A stretch of DNA of 16,845 bases from Escherichia coli (GCF_003334315.1 NZ_QOWR01000073.1), one strand, 5' to 3'; shown: positions 521-16,845, counted from the stretch's first letter. The notes: generated by a model not told the origin, from the sequence alone. Numbers and translations are program-made.

Positions 521-1501
521 TCACAAACGCCCTTCCCCCACCCGGTGCTGATAACTCTGCTGAAACGTTATCATCCCCACCTGCTGCCCGGTTTGAATAA
601 CATGCGGTAACTGGTGGGTTTTCCCTTCGCGAATCAAATTCCCCACCGCGGGTGTGTTAATCAGCAATTCAAATAGCGCCACGCGTCCTTCCTGTTTATC
701 CACTTCCAGCTTTTGTGACAACACGGCCCGTAAACTCCCTGCCAGTTGATTACGTACGGGATCTTTTTCCTGCGCCGGAAATGAATCCACCAGTCGCTCA
801 ACTGACTGCGCGGCACCACGCGTATGTAATGTTGCCAGCACCAAATGCCCGGTTTCTGCCGCCGTCAGTGCCAGACGGATTGTCTCGCTGTCACGCAGCT
901 CTCCGAGCAAAATCACATCAGGATCTTCCCGCAATGCGGCCCGCAATCCCGATGCGAACGTCATACAGTGCAAACCAATTTCCCGCTGCTGGATCAAACA
1001 TCGCTGGCTGGCATAGAGATATTCAACAGGATCTTCCAGCGTCAGAATATGCGCATCGGCATGTTGATTGAGATAGCCAACCATCGCCGCCAGCGTGGTA
1101 GATTTGCCGCTCCCCGTCGCCCCCGTCACCAGAATCAGGCCATTCTCGCTCTTGAGTAATTCCGGCAATACCGTTGGTGCGCCAAGCTGTTCGAGCTGCG
1201 GGCAGTGCGAAGGTAACAGCCGTAACGCCAGCGAAATGCCATGCCGTTGCGCGAATGCGCTGCCACGCAATCGCTGGTTTTCCGCCAGCGACACGGCAAA
1301 ATCCAGCTGGCCATTTTCCAGCAATATTGCCCGCTGATCGTCATCCAGCCACTCCCGCAGTAGCTCTTCGACGTCCGGCGCATCAAACGGCGCAGCTTCC
1401 ATTAGCCCGCGAATGCGCCATCGTGCGGGCCAGGCGCTGCACAGGTGTAGATCCGAGACGTTATGCTTTACACTAAGGGCCACAATTTCTTCCATATTCA
1501 T
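521..1501 (-). CDS. yggR: PilT-like type IV pilus retraction ATPase family protein YggR (326 aa)
   Basis: ORF 521..1576 (-); start trimmed to MNMEEIVALSVKHNVSDLH... (ATG at 1501) because a GAGGA Shine-Dalgarno lies 7 nt upstream and the longer version would overlap yggS. Walker A motif GATGSGKST present. Confidence 0.9.
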   Translation of the reverse strand: MNMEEIVALSVKHNVSDLHLCSAWPARWRIRGLMEAAPFDAPDVEELLREWLDDDQRAILLENGQLDFAVSLAENQRLRGSAFAQRHGISLALRLLPSHCPQLEQLGAPTVLPELLKSENGLILVTGATGSGKSTTLAAMVGYLNQHADAHILTLEDPVEYLYASQRCLIQQREIGLHCMTFASGLRAALREDPDVILLGELRDSETIRLALTAAETGHLVLATLHTRGAAQSVERLVDSFPAQEKDPVRNQLAGSLRAVLSQKLEVDKQEGRVALFELLINTPAVGNLIREGKTHQLPHVIQTGQQVGMITFQQSYQHRVGEGRL

Positions 1502-1518
1502 ACTAAGATCCTCGGAAA

Positions 1519-2223
1519 ATGAACGATATTGCGCATAACCTGGCACAGGTCCGGGACAAAATCTCAGCGGCTGCAACGCGTTGCGGCCGTTCTCCAGAAG
1601 AAATTACGCTGCTTGCAGTCAGTAAAACAAAACCTGCGAGCGCCATCGCAGAAGCCATTGATGCCGGGCAGCGTCAATTTGGTGAAAACTACGTTCAGGA
1701 AGGGGTAGATAAAATTCGCCACTTTCAGGAACTGGGCGTAACAGGATTAGAATGGCATTTTATTGGCCCGTTGCAGTCTAATAAAAGCCGCCTGGTGGCA
1801 GAGCATTTCGACTGGTGTCATACCATCGACCGTTTGCGCATCGCTACCCGTCTCAACGACCAGCGCCCGGCAGAACTTCCCCCTCTTAACGTTCTGATTC
1901 AAATTAACATTAGTGATGAAAACAGTAAGTCCGGGATTCAACTGGCTGAACTGGACGAGCTGGCAGCTGCGGTCGCTGAACTACCGCGTTTACGTCTGCG
2001 CGGGTTGATGGCAATCCCTGCGCCTGAGTCAGAATATGTAAGGCAGTTTGAAGTTGCACGCCAAATGGCTGTAGCATTTGCCGGACTGAAAACGCGCTAC
2101 CCGCATATCGACACGCTCTCTCTGGGAATGTCGGACGATATGGAAGCCGCCATTGCGGCAGGTAGCACGATGGTTCGTATCGGCACTGCAATTTTTGGTG
2201 CGCGTGATTACTCTAAAAAATAA
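1519..2223 (+). CDS. yggS: PLP homeostasis protein (YggS/PLPBP family, alanine racemase-fold PLP-binding)
   Basis: 234 aa ORF MNDIAHNLAQVRDKISAAA...; conserved lysine-containing N-terminal motif LLAVSKTKP; start only 17 bp from the divergent yggR start. Confidence 0.9.
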   Translation: MNDIAHNLAQVRDKISAAATRCGRSPEEITLLAVSKTKPASAIAEAIDAGQRQFGENYVQEGVDKIRHFQELGVTGLEWHFIGPLQSNKSRLVAEHFDWCHTIDRLRIATRLNDQRPAELPPLNVLIQINISDENSKSGIQLAELDELAAAVAELPRLRLRGLMAIPAPESEYVRQFEVARQMAVAFAGLKTRYPHIDTLSLGMSDDMEAAIAAGSTMVRIGTAIFGARDYSKK

Positions 2224-2240
2224 GGAATTAAAGGAACGCC

Positions 2241-2807
2241 ATGAATACGTTGACTTTCCTGCTTTCAACGGTCATTGAGCTGTATACCATGGTGCTGTTA
2301 TTACGCATCTGGATGCAGTGGGCTCATTGTGATTTTTACAACCCCTTCTCACAGTTTGTAGTGAAGGTAACGCAGCCAATTATCGGGCCACTGCGCCGCG
2401 TTATTCCGGCAATGGGGCCAATTGACAGCGCCTCGCTGCTGGTTGCCTATATTCTCAGTTTTATCAAAGCCATCGTGCTGTTTAAAGTGGTGACCTTCCT
2501 GCCAATCATCTGGATTGCCGGTTTACTGATTCTGCTGAAAACCATCGGCCTGCTGATTTTCTGGGTCCTGCTGGTGATGGCGATTATGAGCTGGGTAAGC
2601 CAAGGGCGTAGCCCGATTGAATACGTGCTGATTCAGCTGGCCGATCCGCTGCTGCGCCCGATTCGCCGCCTGCTACCGGCAATGGGTGGGATTGATTTCT
2701 CGCCGATGATCCTCGTTCTGCTGCTGTATGTCATCAATATGGGTGTCGCAGAAGTATTACAGGCAACCGGAAATATGCTGCTGCCAGGGCTGTGGATGGC
2801 GTTATGA
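2241..2807 (+). CDS. yggT: YggT family integral membrane protein
   Basis: 188 aa hydrophobic ORF with a duplicated YGGT-type repeat; 17 bp after the yggS stop with GGAA SD-like sequence. Confidence 0.88.
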
Positions 2808-3094
2808 ATGCCGTAACAGTTAATGATGACGGTCTGGTTTTACGGCTCTATATTCAGCCGAAAGCCAGCCGTGATTCTATTGTCGGTTTACATGGCGACG
2901 AAGTTAAAGTCGCCATTACCGCGCCGCCGGTTGACGGCCAGGCCAACAGCCATCTGGTGAAGTTTCTCGGTAAGCAATTCCGGGTAGCCAAAAGCCAGGT
3001 GGTAATTGAAAAAGGCGAACTTGGCCGCCACAAACAAATTAAAATCATTAATCCGCAACAAATCCCGCCAGAAATCGCGGCGTTAATTAATTAG
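2804..3094 (+). CDS. yggU: DUF167 family protein YggU (96 aa)
   Basis: ORF 2792..3094; start assigned to ATG 2804 ([24 protein letters not shown]...), which overlaps the yggT stop as ATGA. Confidence 0.85.
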
Positions 3095-3101
3095 GTATCC
3101 T

Positions 3102-3695
3102 ATGCAAAAAGTTGTCCTCGCAACCGGCAATGCCGGTAAAGTGCGTGAGCTGGCGTCGCTGCTTAGCGACTTCGGTCTTGATATCGTGGCCCAAACAGAC
3201 CTCGGCGTAGATTCCGCTGAAGAAACCGGCCTGACCTTTATCGAAAACGCGATTCTGAAAGCGCGCCATGCGGCAAAAGTGACCGGTTTACCGGCAATTG
3301 CCGACGACTCTGGTCTGGCGGTAGATGCGCTGGGTGGCGCGCCGGGTATTTACTCCGCGCGTTATTCCGGTGAAGACGCGACCGATCAAAAGAATCTGCA
3401 AAAACTGTTGGAAACACTGAAAGACGTACCGGACGACCAACGTCAGGCGCGTTTCCACTGCGTGCTGGTATATCTGCGTCACGCGGAAGATCCCACTCCG
3501 CTGGTGTGCCACGGTAGCTGGCCGGGCGTGATTACTCGTGAACCAGCGGGCACTGGTGGCTTTGGTTATGATCCAATCTTCTTCGTACCTTCCGAAGGGA
3601 AAACCGCTGCCGAACTGACCCGCGAAGAAAAGAGCGCCATTTCCCACCGTGGTCAGGCATTGAAACTGCTGTTGGACGCTTTACGTAATGGTTAA
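3102..3695 (+). CDS. rdgB: dITP/XTP pyrophosphatase (non-canonical purine NTPase, Ham1/RdgB family)
   Basis: 197 aa [19 protein letters not shown]...; family motifs TGNxGK and FGYDPIF present. Confidence 0.92.
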
Positions 3696-4824
3696 ATTAC
3701 CGCCGCTGAGTCTCTACATTCACATCCCGTGGTGCGTGCAGAAATGCCCGTACTGCGATTTCAACTCTCACGCGTTGAAAGGAGAAGTGCCGCACGACGA
3801 TTACGTTCAGCATCTGCTTTGCGATCTGGACAATGATGTGGCTTACGCTCAGGGCCGTGAAGTAAAGACAATCTTTATTGGCGGTGGTACGCCGAGCCTG
3901 CTTTCCGGCCCGGCGATGCAAACGCTGCTGGACGGCGTGCGTGCGCGTTTGCCGCTGGCAGCGGATGCAGAAATTACTATGGAAGCGAACCCTGGTACGG
4001 TAGAAGCCGATCGCTTTGTCGATTATCAGCGTGCTGGTGTGAACCGCATCTCTATTGGTGTGCAGAGTTTTAGCGAAGAAAAGCTGAAACGACTTGGGCG
4101 CATTCATGGCCCGCAAGAAGCGAAACGAGCGGCAAAGCTGGCGAGCGGTTTAGGGTTACGTAGCTTTAACCTTGATTTGATGCATGGACTACCGGATCAA
4201 TCACTGGAAGAGGCGCTTGGCGATCTACGCCAGGCCATTGAACTGAATCCGCCGCATCTTTCCTGGTATCAACTGACCATCGAACCCAATACGCTGTTTG
4301 GTTCGCGACCACCGGTGCTGCCGGACGACGACGCGCTGTGGGATATATTCGAACAGGGGCATCAGTTATTAACCGCAGCGGGTTATCAGCAATATGAAAC
4401 TTCCGCTTACGCCAAACCCAGTTATCAGTGCCAGCACAATCTCAACTACTGGCGCTTTGGCGACTACATCGGTATTGGCTGCGGCGCGCACGGCAAAGTG
4501 ACCTTCCCGGATGGGCGCATTCTGCGTACCACTAAAACGCGTCATCCGCGTGGTTTTATGCAAGGAAGGTATCTGGAAAGCCAGCGTGATGTCGAAGCCG
4601 CAGATAAGCCGTTTGAGTTCTTTATGAACCGCTTTCGCTTGCTGGAGGCCGCGCCACGCGCAGAGTTTAGTGCGTATACCGGGCTTTGCGAAGATGTGAT
4701 TCGCCCACAGTTAGACGAGGCGATTGCCCAGGGTTATCTCACCGAATGTGCGGATTACTGGCAGATAACGGAACATGGGAAGCTGTTTTTAAATTCGCTG
4801 CTGGAGCTTTTTCTGGCTGAGTAA
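3688..4824 (+). CDS. hemW: Radical SAM family heme chaperone HemW (coproporphyrinogen III oxidase-like)
   Basis: 378 aa ORF with a CxxxCxYC radical-SAM cluster motif (CVQKCPYC); start overlaps the rdgB 3' end by 8 nt. Confidence 0.9.
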
Positions 4825-4833
4825 ACTTGTATT

Positions 4834-4952
4834 GCCGGATGCGGCGTGAACGCCTTATCCAGCCGACATGTGGCAGCGGTTGTAGGTCTGATAAGACGCG
4901 CAAGCGTCGCATCAGACGTTGATTGCCGGATGCGGGGTCAACGCCGCATCCT
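4834..4952. repeat. REP/BIME cluster (three REP-like palindromic units)
   Basis: gccggatgcggcgtgaacgccttatccagc (4834-~4863), inverted unit taggtctgataagacgcgcaagcgtcgcatcagac (4881-~4916), third unit gccggatgcggggtcaacgccgcatcc (4925-~4951). Lies between the convergent hemW and yggM 3' ends. Confidence 0.8.
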
Positions 4953-4978
4953 GCTACAAATCGTGCACTATATCAAAC

Positions 4979-5986
4979 TTACTTAATCACCCCATTGCGC
5001 CGCAGTTGTTCGGTATCTTTTTTCCAGCGTTCATTAGCTTGGTTGATATCGTCAATTTTCATCAAAATCGCGACTTTTTTACTGTTTATTTCTGAAACTT
5101 TCATCGTTAACGGATATTGCCCTTTTTCGAGCGTTACCCAGTCATCCTGCAATTTACGGCTGAGTTTTTGTGATTGCAGAAAAGTCTGTCGCCGTTGTTC
5201 GTTGATATCGAAATCTCGTTTCTGCTGAATCGGCACTTCATAACACTCTTCACTCTGTTTATGACATGCCGCAATCGCCGGTTGATAAACCTCTTTGTCA
5301 TATTTAACCGCGAACGCCTCGCTATCGTTCTGTTTATTAAACTCATCACGCTGTTGGTGAATTTTTTTAAAGGCTTCTTCACGGGTCATTTGCTTACCGT
5401 TTGCATCTTTTCCCCAATATGCATCCGCTGCTTTCTGCGCCGCCACCATTTGCTTATCAAGCGCTTTCACTTCCTTTTCCAGCGCAGGAATCGAGTTCTT
5501 CTGGGTATTCAACGCAGATTCAAGCTGACTAAAGCGATAATTGAAATCTTCGCTATTCACGATCAGATATTTATTATTCGTTTTGATATCGTCGACCACC
5601 CGCCCACGATCGCTGGCTGCCGCCTGAAAAGAGTAAAAGTTCACCGACCAGCCAGACGCGGGCGTTCCTTTACTGGTTAACATCGCCGAGAATTTTACCG
5701 GTTTATCTTTCGTCCAGGTCTGTTCGAGCAGTTCGTAATCTGCCAACTGACCGACCCAGGTATAGAGATCGTCACTGGAAGAGACATCGCCTTCCGCTGA
5801 CCAGGTGGCCTGATTACCCTTAGCATCAAGATTTTTTAAGGTGATAGCATCAAGCTTGAGAATGCCGTGATACTGCTTTTTGAATTGATCTTTTAAGATA
5901 TTTTCAGTTGGCGGTTCGCCATCTGCCCAGACATTACCAGTCATCAACATAAGCAGCGCCGTGCCAACAATCCATTGCTTTTTCAC
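4979..5986 (-). CDS. yggM: Secreted protein of unknown function YggM (DUF1202-like), N-terminal signal peptide
   Basis: 335 aa ORF MKKQWIVGTALLMLMTGNVWADGEPP...; signal peptide with an AxA-type cleavage site (VWA/DG); K/E/Q-rich, probably coiled-coil C-terminal half. Confidence 0.85.
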   Translation of the reverse strand: MKKQWIVGTALLMLMTGNVWADGEPPTENILKDQFKKQYHGILKLDAITLKNLDAKGNQATWSAEGDVSSSDDLYTWVGQLADYELLEQTWTKDKPVKFSAMLTSKGTPASGWSVNFYSFQAAASDRGRVVDDIKTNNKYLIVNSEDFNYRFSQLESALNTQKNSIPALEKEVKALDKQMVAAQKAADAYWGKDANGKQMTREEAFKKIHQQRDEFNKQNDSEAFAVKYDKEVYQPAIAACHKQSEECYEVPIQQKRDFDINEQRRQTFLQSQKLSRKLQDDWVTLEKGQYPLTMKVSEINSKKVAILMKIDDINQANERWKKDTEQLRRNGVIK

Positions 5987-6067
5987 CCGAAAACCCTCGC
6001 GCAGAATAATTTATTCCGGTGATTATCATTAGGGTAATTAAAATTGGCAATGGACGTGAGTCTGAAG

Positions 6068-6094
6068 TGAAAAAGCCCCGGCACGATACCGGGG
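6068..6094 (-). terminator. Rho-independent terminator downstream of ansB
   Basis: Minus-strand transcript carries hairpin ccccggtatcgtgccgggg (perfect 7 bp GC-rich stem, plus coordinates 6076-6094) followed by cttttt, starting about 8 nt after the ansB stop. Confidence 0.7.
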
Positions 6095-6102
6095 CGAGGC
6101 GA

Positions 6103-7149
6103 TTAGTACTGATTGAAGATCTGCTGGATCTGCTGCGGATCTTTGGTTTGCGTCAGAGCCAGTTGCAGCAGAACGCGCGCTTTTTGCGGGTTCAGCGTGC
6201 CAGAGGCGACGAAGCCGTATTTCGCATCATCCACTTCGGCATCCTGAGTGGTAGCGCCCGTCGGTACGCGGGAAGAACGCACGACTGCAGTACCGGTTTT
6301 CGCGGCGGTCGCCAGCGTGTCGAACACAGATTTATACAGGTTGCCGTTACCCACACCAGCGCTAACGATGCCATCATAGCCCGCATCTACCAGTGCTTTA
6401 GCCGGAAGATCGGATGCGTTAGCGTAGTTATAAACAATGCCGACTTTCGGCAGTTCATTCAGCTTAGAGACATCGAATGGCGTGTCGCTGGTATGCTTAC
6501 GTGCCGGGGTACGCTGGTAGTCAATCTTACCGTTGTGAATGTAACCCAGAGGACCGTAGTTAACAGACTTGAAGGTCGCTACGTCGGTGGTGTTGGTTTT
6601 GGTGACGTCACGGCCATCAAGCACGGTGTCATTCATCACTACCAGCACGCCACGGTTGGCGGAGGCTTTATCAGCTGCGGTCACTACCGCGTTATACAGG
6701 TTGAATGGACCGTCTGCGCTCATGGACGTGGACGGGCGCATTGCGCCGACCATCACCACCGGTTTGTCGCATTTCACCGTCAGGTCGAGGAAGTAAGCGG
6801 TTTCTTCCATCGTGTCGGTACCGTGGGTAATGACGAAGCCGTCGGTTTTATCGCAGTCGGTGTTAATTTTTTTCGCCAGTGTCAGCCAGACATTATCGTT
6901 CATGTCCTGGGAGCCGATATTCACTACCTGCTCGCCTTTAACGTTCGCAATGTCCTTCAGTTGCGGCACCGCATTAACCAGATTTTCTACGCCAACTTTA
7001 CCCGCTGTGTAGTTAGATTTGGTTGCGGAGTCACCACCACCGGCAATGGTCCCGCCGGTTGCTAAAATGGTGATATTGGGTAATGCCAATGCTGCACCAC
7101 TAAAACCCATAACCAGTGCGGCAAGTGCCGTCTTTTTGAAAAACTCCAT
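6103..7149 (-). CDS. ansB: Periplasmic L-asparaginase II
   Basis: 348 aa ORF MEFFKKTALAALVMGFSGAALALPNITILATGGTIAGGG...; signal peptide followed by the asparaginase active-site motif TGGTIAG. Confidence 0.95.
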   Translation of the reverse strand: MEFFKKTALAALVMGFSGAALALPNITILATGGTIAGGGDSATKSNYTAGKVGVENLVNAVPQLKDIANVKGEQVVNIGSQDMNDNVWLTLAKKINTDCDKTDGFVITHGTDTMEETAYFLDLTVKCDKPVVMVGAMRPSTSMSADGPFNLYNAVVTAADKASANRGVLVVMNDTVLDGRDVTKTNTTDVATFKSVNYGPLGYIHNGKIDYQRTPARKHTSDTPFDVSKLNELPKVGIVYNYANASDLPAKALVDAGYDGIVSAGVGNGNLYKSVFDTLATAAKTGTAVVRSSRVPTGATTQDAEVDDAKYGFVASGTLNPQKARVLLQLALTQTKDPQQIQQIFNQY

Positions 7150-7179
7150 TTCATTCCTCCAGTTACGTGAACGCTACGC

Positions 7180-7220
7180 ATTATCCCTTAGCTTTGTATG
7201 GGAAAATTGACGTTAAACAA
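7180..7220 (-). promoter_or_regulatory. ansB promoter: FNR-like site (7207-7220) plus -10 hexamer (7180-7185)
   Basis: On the coding strand TTGTTTAACGTCAA matches the FNR consensus TTGAT-N4-ATCAA at 8/10 positions; GATAAT lies about 21-26 bp downstream, the spacing expected for a class II site centred near -41.5. ansB is known to be anaerobically induced by FNR (established knowledge); the site assignment itself is by eye. Confidence 0.55.
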
Positions 7221-7255
7221 TTTACAACATGAATATATTTTGGAGATCTACAAAG

Positions 7256-7271
7256 TTAGAGGCAGGTAACA
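7256..7271 (-). promoter_or_regulatory. Possible weak CRP/FNR-type upstream site of the ansB promoter
   Basis: Coding-strand TGTTAcctgccTCTAA, about 50 bp upstream of the FNR-like site (expected -91.5 geometry); poor match to TGTGA-N6-TCACA. Confidence 0.3.
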
Positions 7272-7285
7272 AAACGAAGAATTAA

Positions 7286-7310
7286 ACGGCATAAAAAAGT
7301 ATTATGCCGT
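7286..7310 (-). terminator. Putative terminator downstream of yggN
   Basis: Inverted repeat acggcataa/ttatgccgt (9 bp stem, 7 nt loop) about 15 nt beyond the yggN stop; on the minus strand it is followed by a moderately T-rich tract (ttaattcttcgtttt). Confidence 0.4.
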
Positions 7311-7324
7311 CTTAAAATAGAGGA

Positions 7325-8044
7325 TTATTTTAAATTCCCGACCAGGGCTTTGCGGCTATCTTCCAGAGTCACAACGCGGCTACAAACATCTTTGCCAAAC
7401 TGCTGGAAATCTTTTTCCTGCTTTTTCCACTCGGTTTGGATTGAGGATTGCAGCCCCCCCAGGCTTCCCAGCACATTCTGTAATGGGTTACCGCCGCTTT
7501 TCAGCACCGCTTTCGCGCCCATTTCATTAATGCTGTCCTGTAAAATTCCACCCATTGCCTGATTCACTAATTGCTGGCCTTCGGCGCGAACCTGATCAAT
7601 GGCTTTATAGTGAAACGTCAGGCCATCGCTGCGCGTTTCAATAATGCGGTTCATCTGCTCTTTCAGCTGCGCATCAAGTTTGGTCAGACGGCTGCGCATT
7701 TTGCTGCTTTCGCCCATCTCCTGAACGATAATTTTATCCAGAGCAATACGGGCTTTCTCGACGCGGCTTTTCGCGCCTTCATCAATCCACGGCAGCGTGC
7801 TGCGTAGTTCAGCCTGATAATCCTTCGCCTGCTCGCGCTGGGCGGCATTCAGGGAATATTGCTTACCGTTATACATCACGTTGCCGTCTGGCGTGATCAC
7901 CAGATTGCCGTTTTCGCCCTTCACCTGCACGGTTTGCGGGCTGACAATCACATCGTCACGCGGCGTGACGTTGCACTGGTAGTCGGCGTGAGCGGTCATT
8001 GCCGTCACTGAAAGTGCTGCCGCCAGCAGCATTTTGCGCATCAT
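7325..8044 (-). CDS. yggN: Secreted protein of unknown function YggN (DUF2884-like), N-terminal signal peptide
   Basis: 239 aa ORF MMRKMLLAAALSVTAMTAHADYQCN...; signal peptide; good SD (GAGGGAAG) upstream. Confidence 0.85.
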   Translation of the reverse strand: MMRKMLLAAALSVTAMTAHADYQCNVTPRDDVIVSPQTVQVKGENGNLVITPDGNVMYNGKQYSLNAAQREQAKDYQAELRSTLPWIDEGAKSRVEKARIALDKIIVQEMGESSKMRSRLTKLDAQLKEQMNRIIETRSDGLTFHYKAIDQVRAEGQQLVNQAMGGILQDSINEMGAKAVLKSGGNPLQNVLGSLGGLQSSIQTEWKKQEKDFQQFGKDVCSRVVTLEDSRKALVGNLK

Positions 8045-8116
8045 AGTCTTCCCTCAAGAAAAAATCAGGCCAGCATTTGCTGGCCCCAGATTGATAACAA
8101 AGTACGCGTTTTCCAT

Positions 8117-8195
8117 GCCGGATGCGGCGTAAACACCTTATCCCGCCTACTCGATCGTGCATCTTTCCAGGCCTGATAAGCGTAGCGCATCAGGC
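8117..8195. repeat. REP/BIME element (two REP units in opposite orientation)
   Basis: gccggatgcggcgtaaacaccttatcccgcctac (8117-8150) and gcctgataagcgtagcgcatcaggc (8171-8195); between the yggL 3' end and the yggN 5' end. Confidence 0.8.
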
Positions 8196-8227
8196 AGTTT
8201 TGCATTTGTCATCGCCCGTATGCTTTC

Positions 8228-8554
8228 TTAGTCCCACCAAACGTCGAAAAGTTCGCTGGTGCGTACCTCATCCAGTTTGCGCTCTTCCAGCCACTTACGC
8301 ACAATCGCCTGATGTTCTTCGGTGCATTTGCCGATTTCCTGCATGCAGATCAGACCTTCCCAGGCCAGATAACCGCTGCCGTCAAAGGCCAGTTTGTTCG
8401 GTTCGATAACCTCGTTAATAAAATCATCAACGGTTTTATCAATCTGTTCTTCCGATGTACCTTCCGGGAATCGCCATGCCACCGAAAATCCTAATTCCTG
8501 GAATTCGTCGATGTGCATTTTTTTACGCAGACGACGGCTACGGTTCTTTGCCAT
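8228..8554 (-). CDS. yggL: DUF469 family protein YggL (108 aa)
   Basis: ORF 8228..8584; start trimmed to [23 protein letters not shown]... (ATG 8554-8552), which overlaps the trmB stop as TAATG. Confidence 0.85.
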   Translation of the reverse strand: MAKNRSRRLRKKMHIDEFQELGFSVAWRFPEGTSEEQIDKTVDDFINEVIEPNKLAFDGSGYLAWEGLICMQEIGKCTEEHQAIVRKWLEERKLDEVRTSELFDVWWD

Positions 8555-9273
8555 TATTTCACCCTCTCGAACATTAAGTCCCATACTCCGTGACCAAGAC
8601 GATGACCACGTTGTTCAAATTTCGTCACCGGACGTGATGCCGGACGCGGTACGTAATCATTGCTCTCTGACAGGTTTTTATAACCGTCAATAGAAGACAT
8701 CACTTCAAGCATATGTTCCGCATAAGGTTCCCAGTCGGTCGCCATATGGAATACGCCCCCCAGCTGCAGTTTGCTTTTTACCAGTTCGGCAAACGGCACC
8801 TGAACGATACGGCGTTTATTATGGCGCGCTTTGTGCCACGGGTCAGGGAAAAAGAGCTGCACCATGCGCAATGAATTGTCAGGAATCATTTTATGCAGCA
8901 CTTCAACCGCATCGTGACACATCACGCGCAGGTTGCTTAAACCTTCTTCATGCGCAGAAGCCAGGCACGCACCAACGCCCGGTGAATGCACTTCAATGCC
9001 GAGGAAGTCCTGCTCAGGGCGATCTTTAGCCATTGCCACCAGCGACGCCCCCATGCCAAAACCAATCTCAAGCGTCACCGGCGCTTCACGGCCAAAAAGC
9101 GCGGGGAAATCCAGCATATCTTCGCTGAACTCAACGCCCATCACCGGCCAGTAGTTTTCCAGCGCATGTTCCTGGCCTTTGGTCAGTCGCCCCTGGCGGC
9201 GCACAAAACTACGGATACGGCGCAGTGGGCGGCCGTTTTCATCAAATTCCGGTGAAATGACGTCGTTTTTCAT
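8554..9273 (-). CDS. trmB: tRNA (guanine46-N7)-methyltransferase
   Basis: 239 aa [46 protein letters not shown]...; SAM-binding motif region EIGFGMG. Confidence 0.92.
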
Positions 9274-9433
9274 AAAGGTTTAGTCGCTTGTGAAAGTGTT
9301 CTGAAAACGGGCATTATCCAAAGTTAGTTGCCGGATGCAAGCATGATAAGGCCGTGGCTGCGGAAAGTTCCGGTTTACACCCTGCCGTCGCTGTGCTGCA
9401 ATCTTGCCCCCAACAACAGTGAATTCGGTGACC

Positions 9434-10826: not shown

Positions 10827-11933
<1,107 letters not shown>

Positions 11934-15576: not shown

Positions 15577-15973
15577 AAGCGCAAACCCGTTTCGGGGAAG
15601 TAAGAATACCGGACAAGGTGGAAAACCCTGCCCCATGAGATATGGGTCAAACTGGTCACCAGCTCCGACCGCCAGACATCAGTAAAAGCAGAAACGCTCT
15701 GATTTTACTGTTGTCCTGCAGTGAGCGTGCGTTAACTTCACCGCATGAGCAGTAACATAGAAAGGGAAACGTTTCGCGCGAAACGGCGATAAGCGAGAGA
15801 ATGTAAGGAGATGGCGTGCATCGGGCAAACTCCGTACAGAGAGGAGAAAATTCGCGCAATCATGGCACCTTTCGCTAAAGCGTGCAAGCCAGGACTTTGC
15901 GAACAAACAAGCCATCGACGGCACCAAACGGTCATAATAAGAAAATCAAACAATACAGTTAACAGGAACTCTT

Positions 15974-16786: not shown

Positions 16787-16845
16787 GCCCGGATAGCTCA
16801 GTCGGTAGAGCAGGGGATTGAAAATCCCCGTGTCCTTGGTTCGAT
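16787..16845 (+). tRNA. pheV: tRNA-Phe (anticodon GAA), 5' 59 nt; 3' end truncated by the window
   Basis: GCCCGGATAGCTCAGTCGGTAGAGCAGGGGATTGAAAATCCCCGTGTCCTTGGTTCGAT: acceptor/D-arm/anticodon loop (cuGAAaa) and start of the T-arm (GGTTCGAT). Assigned as pheV rather than pheU from the yqgA-adjacent context. Confidence 0.9.

Follow-up and report, generated by a model that had tools for sequence, protein, structure and literature searches.

The stretch of Escherichia coli chromosome that runs from ruvX to yqgA (16,845 nucleotides, referred to here as the window) contains three same-strand gene junctions at which neighbouring genes overlap, which raises the question of whether translation of the second gene in each pair is coupled to that of the first. 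The overlaps, read directly from the sequence, measure 4, 8 and 1 nt (yggT/yggU, rdgB/hemW and trmB/yggL, respectively), and the coding limits at all three are identical in the RefSeq annotation of an identical E. coli chromosome (Table 1). An earlier note on this DNA had placed them at 2804-2807, 3688-3695 and 8556-8552 (minus strand); sequence and RefSeq agree exactly with these positions, and the gene names, coordinates and start codons given there are right. Each pair consists of co-directional neighbours with the stop/start configuration of its spacing class (NTGA for -4, NTGnnTRA for -8, TRATG for -1). The products of rdgB (TIGR00042, 241.5 bits, cut-off 145), hemW (TIGR00539, 469 bits, cut-off 205) and trmB (TIGR00091, 251.9 bits, cut-off 113) match their protein families; YggT has no NCBIfam match, and its name is taken from RefSeq only.

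Table 1. Features at the three overlapping junctions, with positions in the window.
Feature	Position	Strand	Basis
yggT CDS, 188 aa, stop TGA 2805-2807	2241..2807	+	ORF list; RefSeq annotation of identical chromosome
yggU CDS, 96 aa, DUF167, ATG 2804-2806	2804..3094	+	RefSeq; NCBIfam; N-terminal peptide
Alternative in-frame GTG for yggU (100-aa form, 16-nt overlap), unsupported	2792..2794	+	ORF list
ATGA overlap yggT/yggU (-4 class)	2804..2807	+	sequence
GGATGG, moderate Shine-Dalgarno-like stretch inside yggT, 5' of yggU ATG	2794..2799	+	duplex energy
rdgB CDS, 197 aa, 7 nt past yggU stop, stop TAA 3693-3695	3102..3695	+	ORF list; RefSeq; TIGR00042
hemW CDS, 378 aa, ATG 3688-3690	3688..4824	+	ORF list; RefSeq; TIGR00539
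ATGGTTAA, 8-nt overlap rdgB/hemW (-8 class), no Shine-Dalgarno 5'	3688..3695	+	sequence
trmB CDS, 239 aa, stop TAA 8556-8554	8554..9273	-	ORF list; sequence; RefSeq; TIGR00091
yggL CDS, 108 aa, ATG 8554-8552	8228..8554	-	RefSeq; NF008685; relatives
Alternative in-frame ATG for yggL (118-aa form, 31-nt overlap), unsupported	8582..8584	-	ORF list
TAATG overlap trmB/yggL (-1 class, 1 nt)	8552..8556	-	sequence
GAGAGGG Shine-Dalgarno for yggL inside trmB end	8562..8568	-	duplex energy
Terminator-like hairpin and T-run between yggL and yggN	8067..8086	-	consensus scan only

We regard the three as probably ordinary operon junctions, one from each of the commonest overlap classes (-4 ATGA, -8 ATGnnTAA and -1 TAATG). 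Spacings of -8 to +6 nt are found in 707 of 2,987 E. coli same-strand pairs (24%; PMC10666635), and for the 12 same-strand CDS pairs of the window this base rate predicts 2.84 overlapping or tight pairs against the 3 observed (P(>=3) = 0.57), so that three overlaps are no more than chance would supply and the window shows no enrichment. The description of these arrangements as compact and typical of operon partners is sound, since no spacings are more enriched in prokaryotes than -4, -1 and -8, and Huber et al. 2023 (Table S2) already list all three pairs for K-12. The overlaps are real, ordinary and already known; a compact layout is the genome-wide norm, and their significance goes little beyond annotation quality, namely three start codons correctly placed in a well-studied region. 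Neither a terminator nor a promoter could fit between paired genes that overlap, and we infer that each pair is co-transcribed. In a consensus scan a terminator-like site appears only after yggL, where it likely marks the end of a trmB-yggL transcript, and at none of the junctions themselves; Rfam places an RNA family at none of them. Two further tight junctions, absent from the earlier note, lie in the same operon: yggS/yggT (+17) and yggU/rdgB (+7).

The size of the overlaps depends on the start codons. Both the yggU and the yggL frames remain open upstream, and if translation began at GTG 2792 and ATG 8584 the overlaps would grow from 4 to 16 nt and from 1 to 31 nt; the 100-residue form of YggU is indeed the construct of PDB 1N91/1YH5, and a few database entries carry a 118-residue YggL. 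We nevertheless consider such mis-assignment scarcely credible. N-terminal proteomics, proposed in the earlier note as a check, has been published for yggU and bears out ATG 2804, to which a 14-residue N-terminal peptide maps (PMC13245402 Table S1). The N-terminus M-[S/N/T]-A-V is conserved among relatives, the NCBIfam profile NF003466 fits the short form (160.9 bits, cut-off 138, beginning at residue 3), and GTG 2792 is missing in the distant relatives L014, L021 and L045, its presence here being a by-product of conserved yggT Leu-Trp codons. Terminomics, comparative absence and profile fit together lead us to reject GTG 2792, and the start of yggU accordingly differs from that of the construct behind the deposited NMR structures.

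For yggL, the equivalent of ATG 8584 is missing in L010 and L012; in the former, from Photorhabdus, an in-frame TAA lies 6 nt 5' of the yggL ATG, and in Yersinia (L082) the identical N-terminus, MAKNRSRR, follows a 5' region that is unrelated. Residues 1-108 of the short form cover the 108-position profile NF008685 (200.7, cut-off 115), and the GGAG serving ATG 8584 is only 1 nt from that codon; on the evidence of relatives, profile and this spacing we reject the longer form. In hemW, ATG 3688 is the sole in-frame start 5' of a conserved 11-residue motif, and the profile begins at residue 7. The starts obtained by trimming the longer ORF frames are thus the supported ones: the overlap start codon of yggU is used, as the published peptide attests, and comparison and profile coverage indicate the same for hemW and yggL. 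The available part of TRAINSPOTTER Table S1, in which b2954 is followed by b2960, has no rows for hemW or yggL, and the INRI-seq supplements have no start-site entries for them; no solved structure of HemW itself or YggL itself was found.

From this geometry, translational coupling at the three junctions, as the earlier note had proposed, is plausible. A ribosome terminating on the upstream gene would sit on or beside the downstream start, and so could reinitiate there (termination-reinitiation coupling); it would also melt local structure. Among native E. coli -4 pairs, four of the five tested are coupled (Huber et al. 2019, PMC6728339), and coupling collapses at a spacing of about 20 nt. The literature searched yielded neither expression or transcript data nor reporter results for the three pairs.

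How far each downstream gene would depend on its neighbour can be gauged from its Shine-Dalgarno (SD) duplex, for which the threshold is -3.5 kcal/mol (Huber 2019); an SD within the upstream gene is frequent in such pairs and often contributes, but coupling does not require one. The same values bear on an alternative that we think unlikely: that the overlaps are neutral by-products of a compact genome, the downstream genes being initiated mainly independently at their own ribosome-binding sites, with no meaningful coupling. Three of the four bases in NTGA are already there in any start codon, which makes such overlaps easy to acquire, and according to a review the abundance of -4 junctions probably reflects this ease of evolution. 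The -4 pair bioBF initiates independently, de novo (PMC6728339), so overlap alone is no proof of coupling. Usable SD-like sites at yggL and yggU also count against a need for it. That of yggL is good (-6.3 kcal/mol, its 3' end at an optimal 8 nt before the ATG) and conserved in relatives; its GAGG could recruit ribosomes independently, and dependence on the upstream gene would be weakest here. The TAATG is kept in all seven genome loci with both trmB and yggL, plus Pantoea L084; the spacing is +1 in Brenneria and +15, with a GAGGAG of its own, in other relatives, and yggL is unlinked from trmB in Yersinia and other genomes, so the overlap is dispensable for yggL expression. Dependence would be intermediate for yggU, whose GGATGG pairs with ACCUCCUUA at -5.5 kcal/mol through an internal bulge and is marginal as an SD.

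It is hemW that fits independent initiation least well, and its dependence would be the strongest. Its best duplex reaches merely -3.0 kcal/mol at a spacing of 11, short of the threshold, and 12 of 13 Enterobacterales retain the ATGnnTRA at the junction, with RdgB ending variously in NG, DA, HA or NA: in those 12 the penultimate RdgB codon invariably has the form xAT and the next one begins with G, although the amino acids change, and the hemW ATG inside rdgB thereby constrains two RdgB codons. The record of tested -4 pairs also speaks against a neutral origin, as does the spacing distribution, whose sharp drop beyond the -8 to +6 range points to selection on geometry. In synthetic constructs coupling becomes less efficient as the overlap grows past -4, and the -8 junction could be less well coupled for that reason. 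The native pairs in the coupling studies cited have spacings of -4 to +1 only, and hemW, a clean natural SD-less gene at a -8 overlap, is a convenient test case for reinitiation in the -8 class, if only a mildly useful lead.

A stronger reading can be built on the same gene. The lack of an SD, a start held 8 nt inside rdgB across Enterobacterales, and tight spacing in hundreds of species (the RdgB-HemN pair has a median spacing of -4 in 430 species; Huber 2023) might mean that HemW is made in strict dependence on RdgB translation because the two proteins act together. This would amount to a link, physical or stoichiometric, that has gone unrecognised between an ITP/XTP pyrophosphatase and a radical-SAM heme chaperone, and we hold it to be very doubtful. 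Pairs that encode subunits of a heteromeric complex are the subclass enriched among overlapping genes, but in Huber 2023 Table S2 the entry on such complexes is "not" for rdgB/hemW and trmB/yggL and undetermined for yggT/yggU, and by that table none of the three pairs are known partners in one complex, a point that also sits well with neutral overlaps. There is no sign of a function other than routine co-expression.

Coupling of yggT and yggU might alternatively operate by RNA unfolding rather than by reinitiation, if only a ribosome finishing yggT could open an 8-bp hairpin predicted at 2796-2814, in which the yggU AUG occupies the loop and the SD-like GGAUGG is part of the stem. The energy needed to open -15 to +12 around this start, 14.7 kcal/mol, is the second highest of 15 window starts, and the hairpin is also predicted in L003, L004 and L006 and, weakened or altered, in L002, L005 and L007, with U-A/U-G/C-G and G-U/A-U substitutions that preserve pairing. 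It is absent, however, in L008, L011, L014 and L045, all four of which retain the -4 overlap. Its stability is no better than that of shuffled sequences (z = -1.13, with 30 of 200 shuffles matching it). Two conserved protein sequences, WMAL* and MSAV, also limit the choice of bases in the stem, and the comparison draws on only about seven related sequences. We find the hairpin highly improbable as the basis of coupling and set it aside; folds at the hemW and yggL junctions are likewise unremarkable (z = -0.28 and +1.10).

The earlier note had also read the overlaps as linking yggU to yggT and yggL to trmB, and here the two cases diverge. In gene order, yggT remains next to yggU, and rdgB next to hemW, over a broad range of genomes. 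In 15 of the 26 loci compared yggU adjoins yggT, with a -4 overlap in 10 of these 15 and one of -1 in another 2, and the median YggT-YggU spacing over 253 species is +2 (Huber 2023). The conserved adjacency makes a functional link between yggU and yggT fair. The literature search on YggU function yielded nothing decisive. The trmB-yggL adjacency, by contrast, occurs in only part of the sampled Enterobacterales and was not seen at the loci examined farther afield, which include those of Vibrio and pseudomonads; being thus restricted, and variable or broken in some Enterobacterales, it makes a yggL-trmB link weak. A deeper link finds no footing either, since the COG pair is absent among the matches listed in the Huber tables and distant yggL homologues adjoin unrelated genes. 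The label "uncharacterised" is outdated for YggL, which is a 50S/70S ribosome-associated protein (PMC7498339); no association with TrmB is reported.

[quoted passage not shown] Those pairs were established with reporters and stop-codon variants, whereas the pairs of the window are known from sequence, and two of them belong to the -8 and -1 classes. The junction of trpB-trpA is TGATG (-1), like that of trmB/yggL. Together with atpHA, rplJL and motAB, classical coupled pairs in which downstream translation depends on upstream (PMC6728339), it shares with the pairs studied here the arrangement of co-directional operon neighbours, but the products of these classical pairs are subunits of a single enzyme or complex, and no such relation is known for YggT/YggU, RdgB/HemW or TrmB/YggL. 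The counter-example is bioB-bioF, with a -4 overlap and a very weak SD, yet uncoupled (PMC6728339). At the level of gene order, yggS-(proC)-yggT-yggU and (rph)-rdgB-hemW recur in many gammaproteobacteria, proC being missing between yggS and yggT in Enterobacteriaceae and yggU from the yggT locus in Morganellaceae; outside Enterobacterales the spacing within the yggT-yggU and rdgB-hemW neighbourhoods ranges from -4 to about +100.

The three overlaps that the earlier note had read at yggT/yggU, rdgB/hemW and trmB/yggL lie at the same coordinates by direct reading of the sequence and have identical RefSeq CDS limits. Other plus-strand operon junctions, unmentioned there, are also tight: yggS/yggT (+17) and yggU/rdgB (+7; positive values are gaps and negative values overlaps, in nt). 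The 8 kb at window 1400-9400 are shared, at 100% identity, with many complete E. coli chromosomes and are matched by 5,426 of the 5,426 genomes of the collection; gene order was taken from the RefSeq annotation of one identical chromosome and put into window coordinates.

Gene order (RefSeq) and positions of features in the window
Feature	Position	Strand	Detail
ruvX		+	first gene in order
yggR		-	after ruvX
yggS, yggT, yggU, rdgB, hemW		+	in this order
yggM, ansB, yggN, yggL, trmB		-	in this order
mutY, yggX, mltC, nupG		+	in this order
speC, yqgH		-	in this order
yqgA		+
yqgH	15738-15821	-	small annotated gene, 27 codons, upstream of speC
tRNA-Phe	16787-16845	+	cut off by window end
yggT/yggU overlap	stop TGA 2805-2807; yggU ATG from 2804	+	ATGA, 4 nt
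rdgB/hemW overlap	stop TAA 3693-3695; hemW ATG from 3688	+	ATGGTTAA, 8 nt
trmB/yggL overlap	stop TAA 8556-8554; yggL ATG 8554-8552	-	TAATG, 1 nt
yggR/yggS start codons	1501-1519	-/+	divergent, 17 bp apart
NsrR site inside yggS	~2080		~159 bp upstream of yggT
Predicted yggU hairpin	2796-2814		8 bp, AUG as 3-nt loop
REP-like units	4834-4955		two, just 3' of hemW
naRNA4 (RF02564)	4885-4955	-	second REP-like unit
ORF antisense to ansB	6019-7065	+	348 aa, GTG-initiated
ansB	6103-7149	-	348 aa
mltC tandem ATGATG	10851-10856	+	ORF opens 10851, RefSeq start 10854

The arrangement is real, but it is the genome-wide norm and has already been catalogued. The commonest same-strand spacing in E. coli is -4, followed by -1 and -8, and 707 of 2,987 same-strand pairs (24%) fall between -8 and +6 (Huber 2023, PMC10666635); a 2025 review finds the same three spacings commonest across prokaryotes. 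The junctions are thus compact and typical of operon partners, as had been proposed, and do not exceed chance: among the 12 same-strand CDS pairs of the window, 2.84 would be expected between -8 and +6, against 3 observed (P(>=3) = 0.57). For K-12, Supplementary Table S2 of Huber 2023 lists yggT/yggU at -4, yggU/rdgB at +7, rdgB/hemW at -8 and trmB/yggL at -1 (PMC10666635).

The overlaps depend on start codons that the earlier note had obtained by trimming longer frames, and the starts of the three downstream genes are supported, that of yggU by an N-terminal peptide, those of yggL and hemW by comparison of relatives, and that of yggL also by profile. The raw yggU frame opens at GTG 2792 (100 aa). 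N-terminal data had been suggested as a check, and a 2026 E. coli N-terminomics study maps the nascent yggU N-terminal peptide to the annotated ATG; the 60 nt given around that start are the same as in the window (PMC13245402, Table S1 row 683). GTG 2792 takes its first base from the end of a Leu codon and its other two from the start of a Trp codon, both within the conserved YggT C-terminus, which makes its presence uninformative; it is missing in Rheinheimera (L014), Psychromonas (L021) and Denitrificimonas (L045), where yggU still begins M/L-x-A-V within the stop/start overlap. On the peptide at ATG 2804 and these absences, GTG 2792 was rejected. The NMR structures PDB 1N91 and 1YH5 represent the 100-aa form, with a chain that begins MDGVM and extends four residues beyond the N-terminus of the N-terminomics and current annotation (window 2792-2806).

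The raw yggL frame likewise extends to ATG 8584 (118 aa). This start was rejected: an in-frame TAA stands 6 nt before the yggL ATG in Photorhabdus (L010), Yersinia hibernica (L082) retains the MAKNRSRR N-terminus after an unrelated upstream region, a 108-position NCBIfam profile covers YggL residues 1-108, and the GGAG before ATG 8584 lies only 1 nt from it. For hemW, ATG 3688 is the sole in-frame start upstream of the conserved motif. For hemW and yggL, published E. coli start-site data yielded neither a peptide nor a footprint as direct evidence.

Conservation was surveyed in 80 loci around rdgB, one genome per species, with neighbours located by tblastn. YggT and yggU are adjacent in 15 of 26 yggT-bearing loci, at -4 in 10 (ATGA, TTGA or GTGA, from Escherichia to Rheinheimera and Denitrificimonas), -1 in two (Vibrio, Psychromonas) and +8 to +83 in three. 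In the Morganellaceae loci L009, L010 and L012 (Photorhabdus, Providencia) no yggU stands between yggT and rdgB, and a gap of ~0.9 kb separates yggS from yggT; in L010 this gap holds proC (TIGR00112, 240 bits) and the yggT ORF ends 27 nt before rdgB. RdgB and hemW are adjacent in most gammaproteobacterial loci, at -8 in 12 of the 13 Enterobacterales (the window among them), and elsewhere at -4 to about +100, mostly small. The -8 ATG is retained although the last two RdgB residues vary (NG, DA, HA, NA), the penultimate codon always being xAT and the last one always G-initial. The sole exception among Enterobacterales, Superficieibacter electus (L004, 10450-10465), has ATC there and probably starts hemW instead at an in-frame GTG at -11, which would make the overlap 11 nt. 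Across species, Huber 2023 gives medians of -4 for RdgB-HemN (430 species) and +2 for YggT-YggU (253 species; PMC10666635).

Among the Enterobacterales sampled, only a part have trmB and yggL adjacent; TAATG occurs in all 7 of 7 genome loci holding both genes, also in Pantoea, and the spacing is +1 in Brenneria and +15 in a metagenomic contig where yggL has a GAGGAG site of its own. No yggL follows trmB in Acerihabitans, Vibrio, Pseudidiomarina or Stutzerimonas, and the two genes are separate in Yersinia hibernica and around two distant homologues. In the Yersinia contig (L082, 2340-2830) yggL has its own AGGA site; upstream are an MFS transporter gene, a 125-aa ORF and a 148-nt gap, and downstream glutaminase, yggN and reversed hemW.

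From these overlaps we infer co-transcription of the pairs and coupling. Judged from sequence, translational coupling is plausible at the junctions, most so for hemW, as the geometry brings a ribosome that finishes the upstream gene onto the following start codon or right next to it. Coupling was seen in 4 of 5 native E. coli -4 pairs tested (Huber 2019, PMC6728339); it is nearly abolished at ~20 nt intergenic distance, and in synthetic constructs overlaps longer than -4 lower its efficiency. Pairing with the 16S 3' end is -6.3 kcal/mol for yggL (GAGG, 8 nt upstream), -5.5 for yggU (bulged GGAUGG) and -3.0 for hemW, which, having no Shine-Dalgarno sequence and the weakest pairing, would depend most on ribosomes coming from rdgB. 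YggL might also be translated by independent initiation, in line with its expression elsewhere from contexts that are non-overlapping or unlinked. The hairpin predicted at the yggU start (opening energy 14.7 kcal/mol) is intact or weakened, with pair-preserving substitutions, in six Enterobacteriaceae (L002-L007), is missing in L008, L011, L014 and L045, all of which retain the overlap, and has no extra stability against shuffles (z = -1.13); a role for it would be a minor possibility.

Several further features were observed. With the yggR and yggS starts so close, the two promoters must either overlap or each fall within the coding sequence of the opposite gene. An NsrR ChIP peak and predicted site inside yggS in E. 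coli CFT073 (PMC5320621) hint at an internal regulatory site of the operon. The naRNA4 match reaches 60.9 bits, above the gathering score (59.5), and the ORF antisense to ansB is probably a shadow ORF.

Regarding function, conservation of the neighbourhood is already recognised for the yggS-(proC)-yggT-yggU cluster and for rdgB-hemW, and none of the pairs YggT/YggU, RdgB/HemW and TrmB/YggL is recorded as forming a complex (Huber 2023 Table S2, PMC10666635). The earlier note had tied yggU to yggT and yggL to TrmB. The first tie holds as conserved adjacency; in the second the overlap is real, and adjacency, being narrow and variable, argues only weakly for a specific link. YggL is a 50S/70S ribosome-associated protein whose deletion raises free 50S (PMC7498339), a role thematically close to that of the tRNA methyltransferase TrmB.
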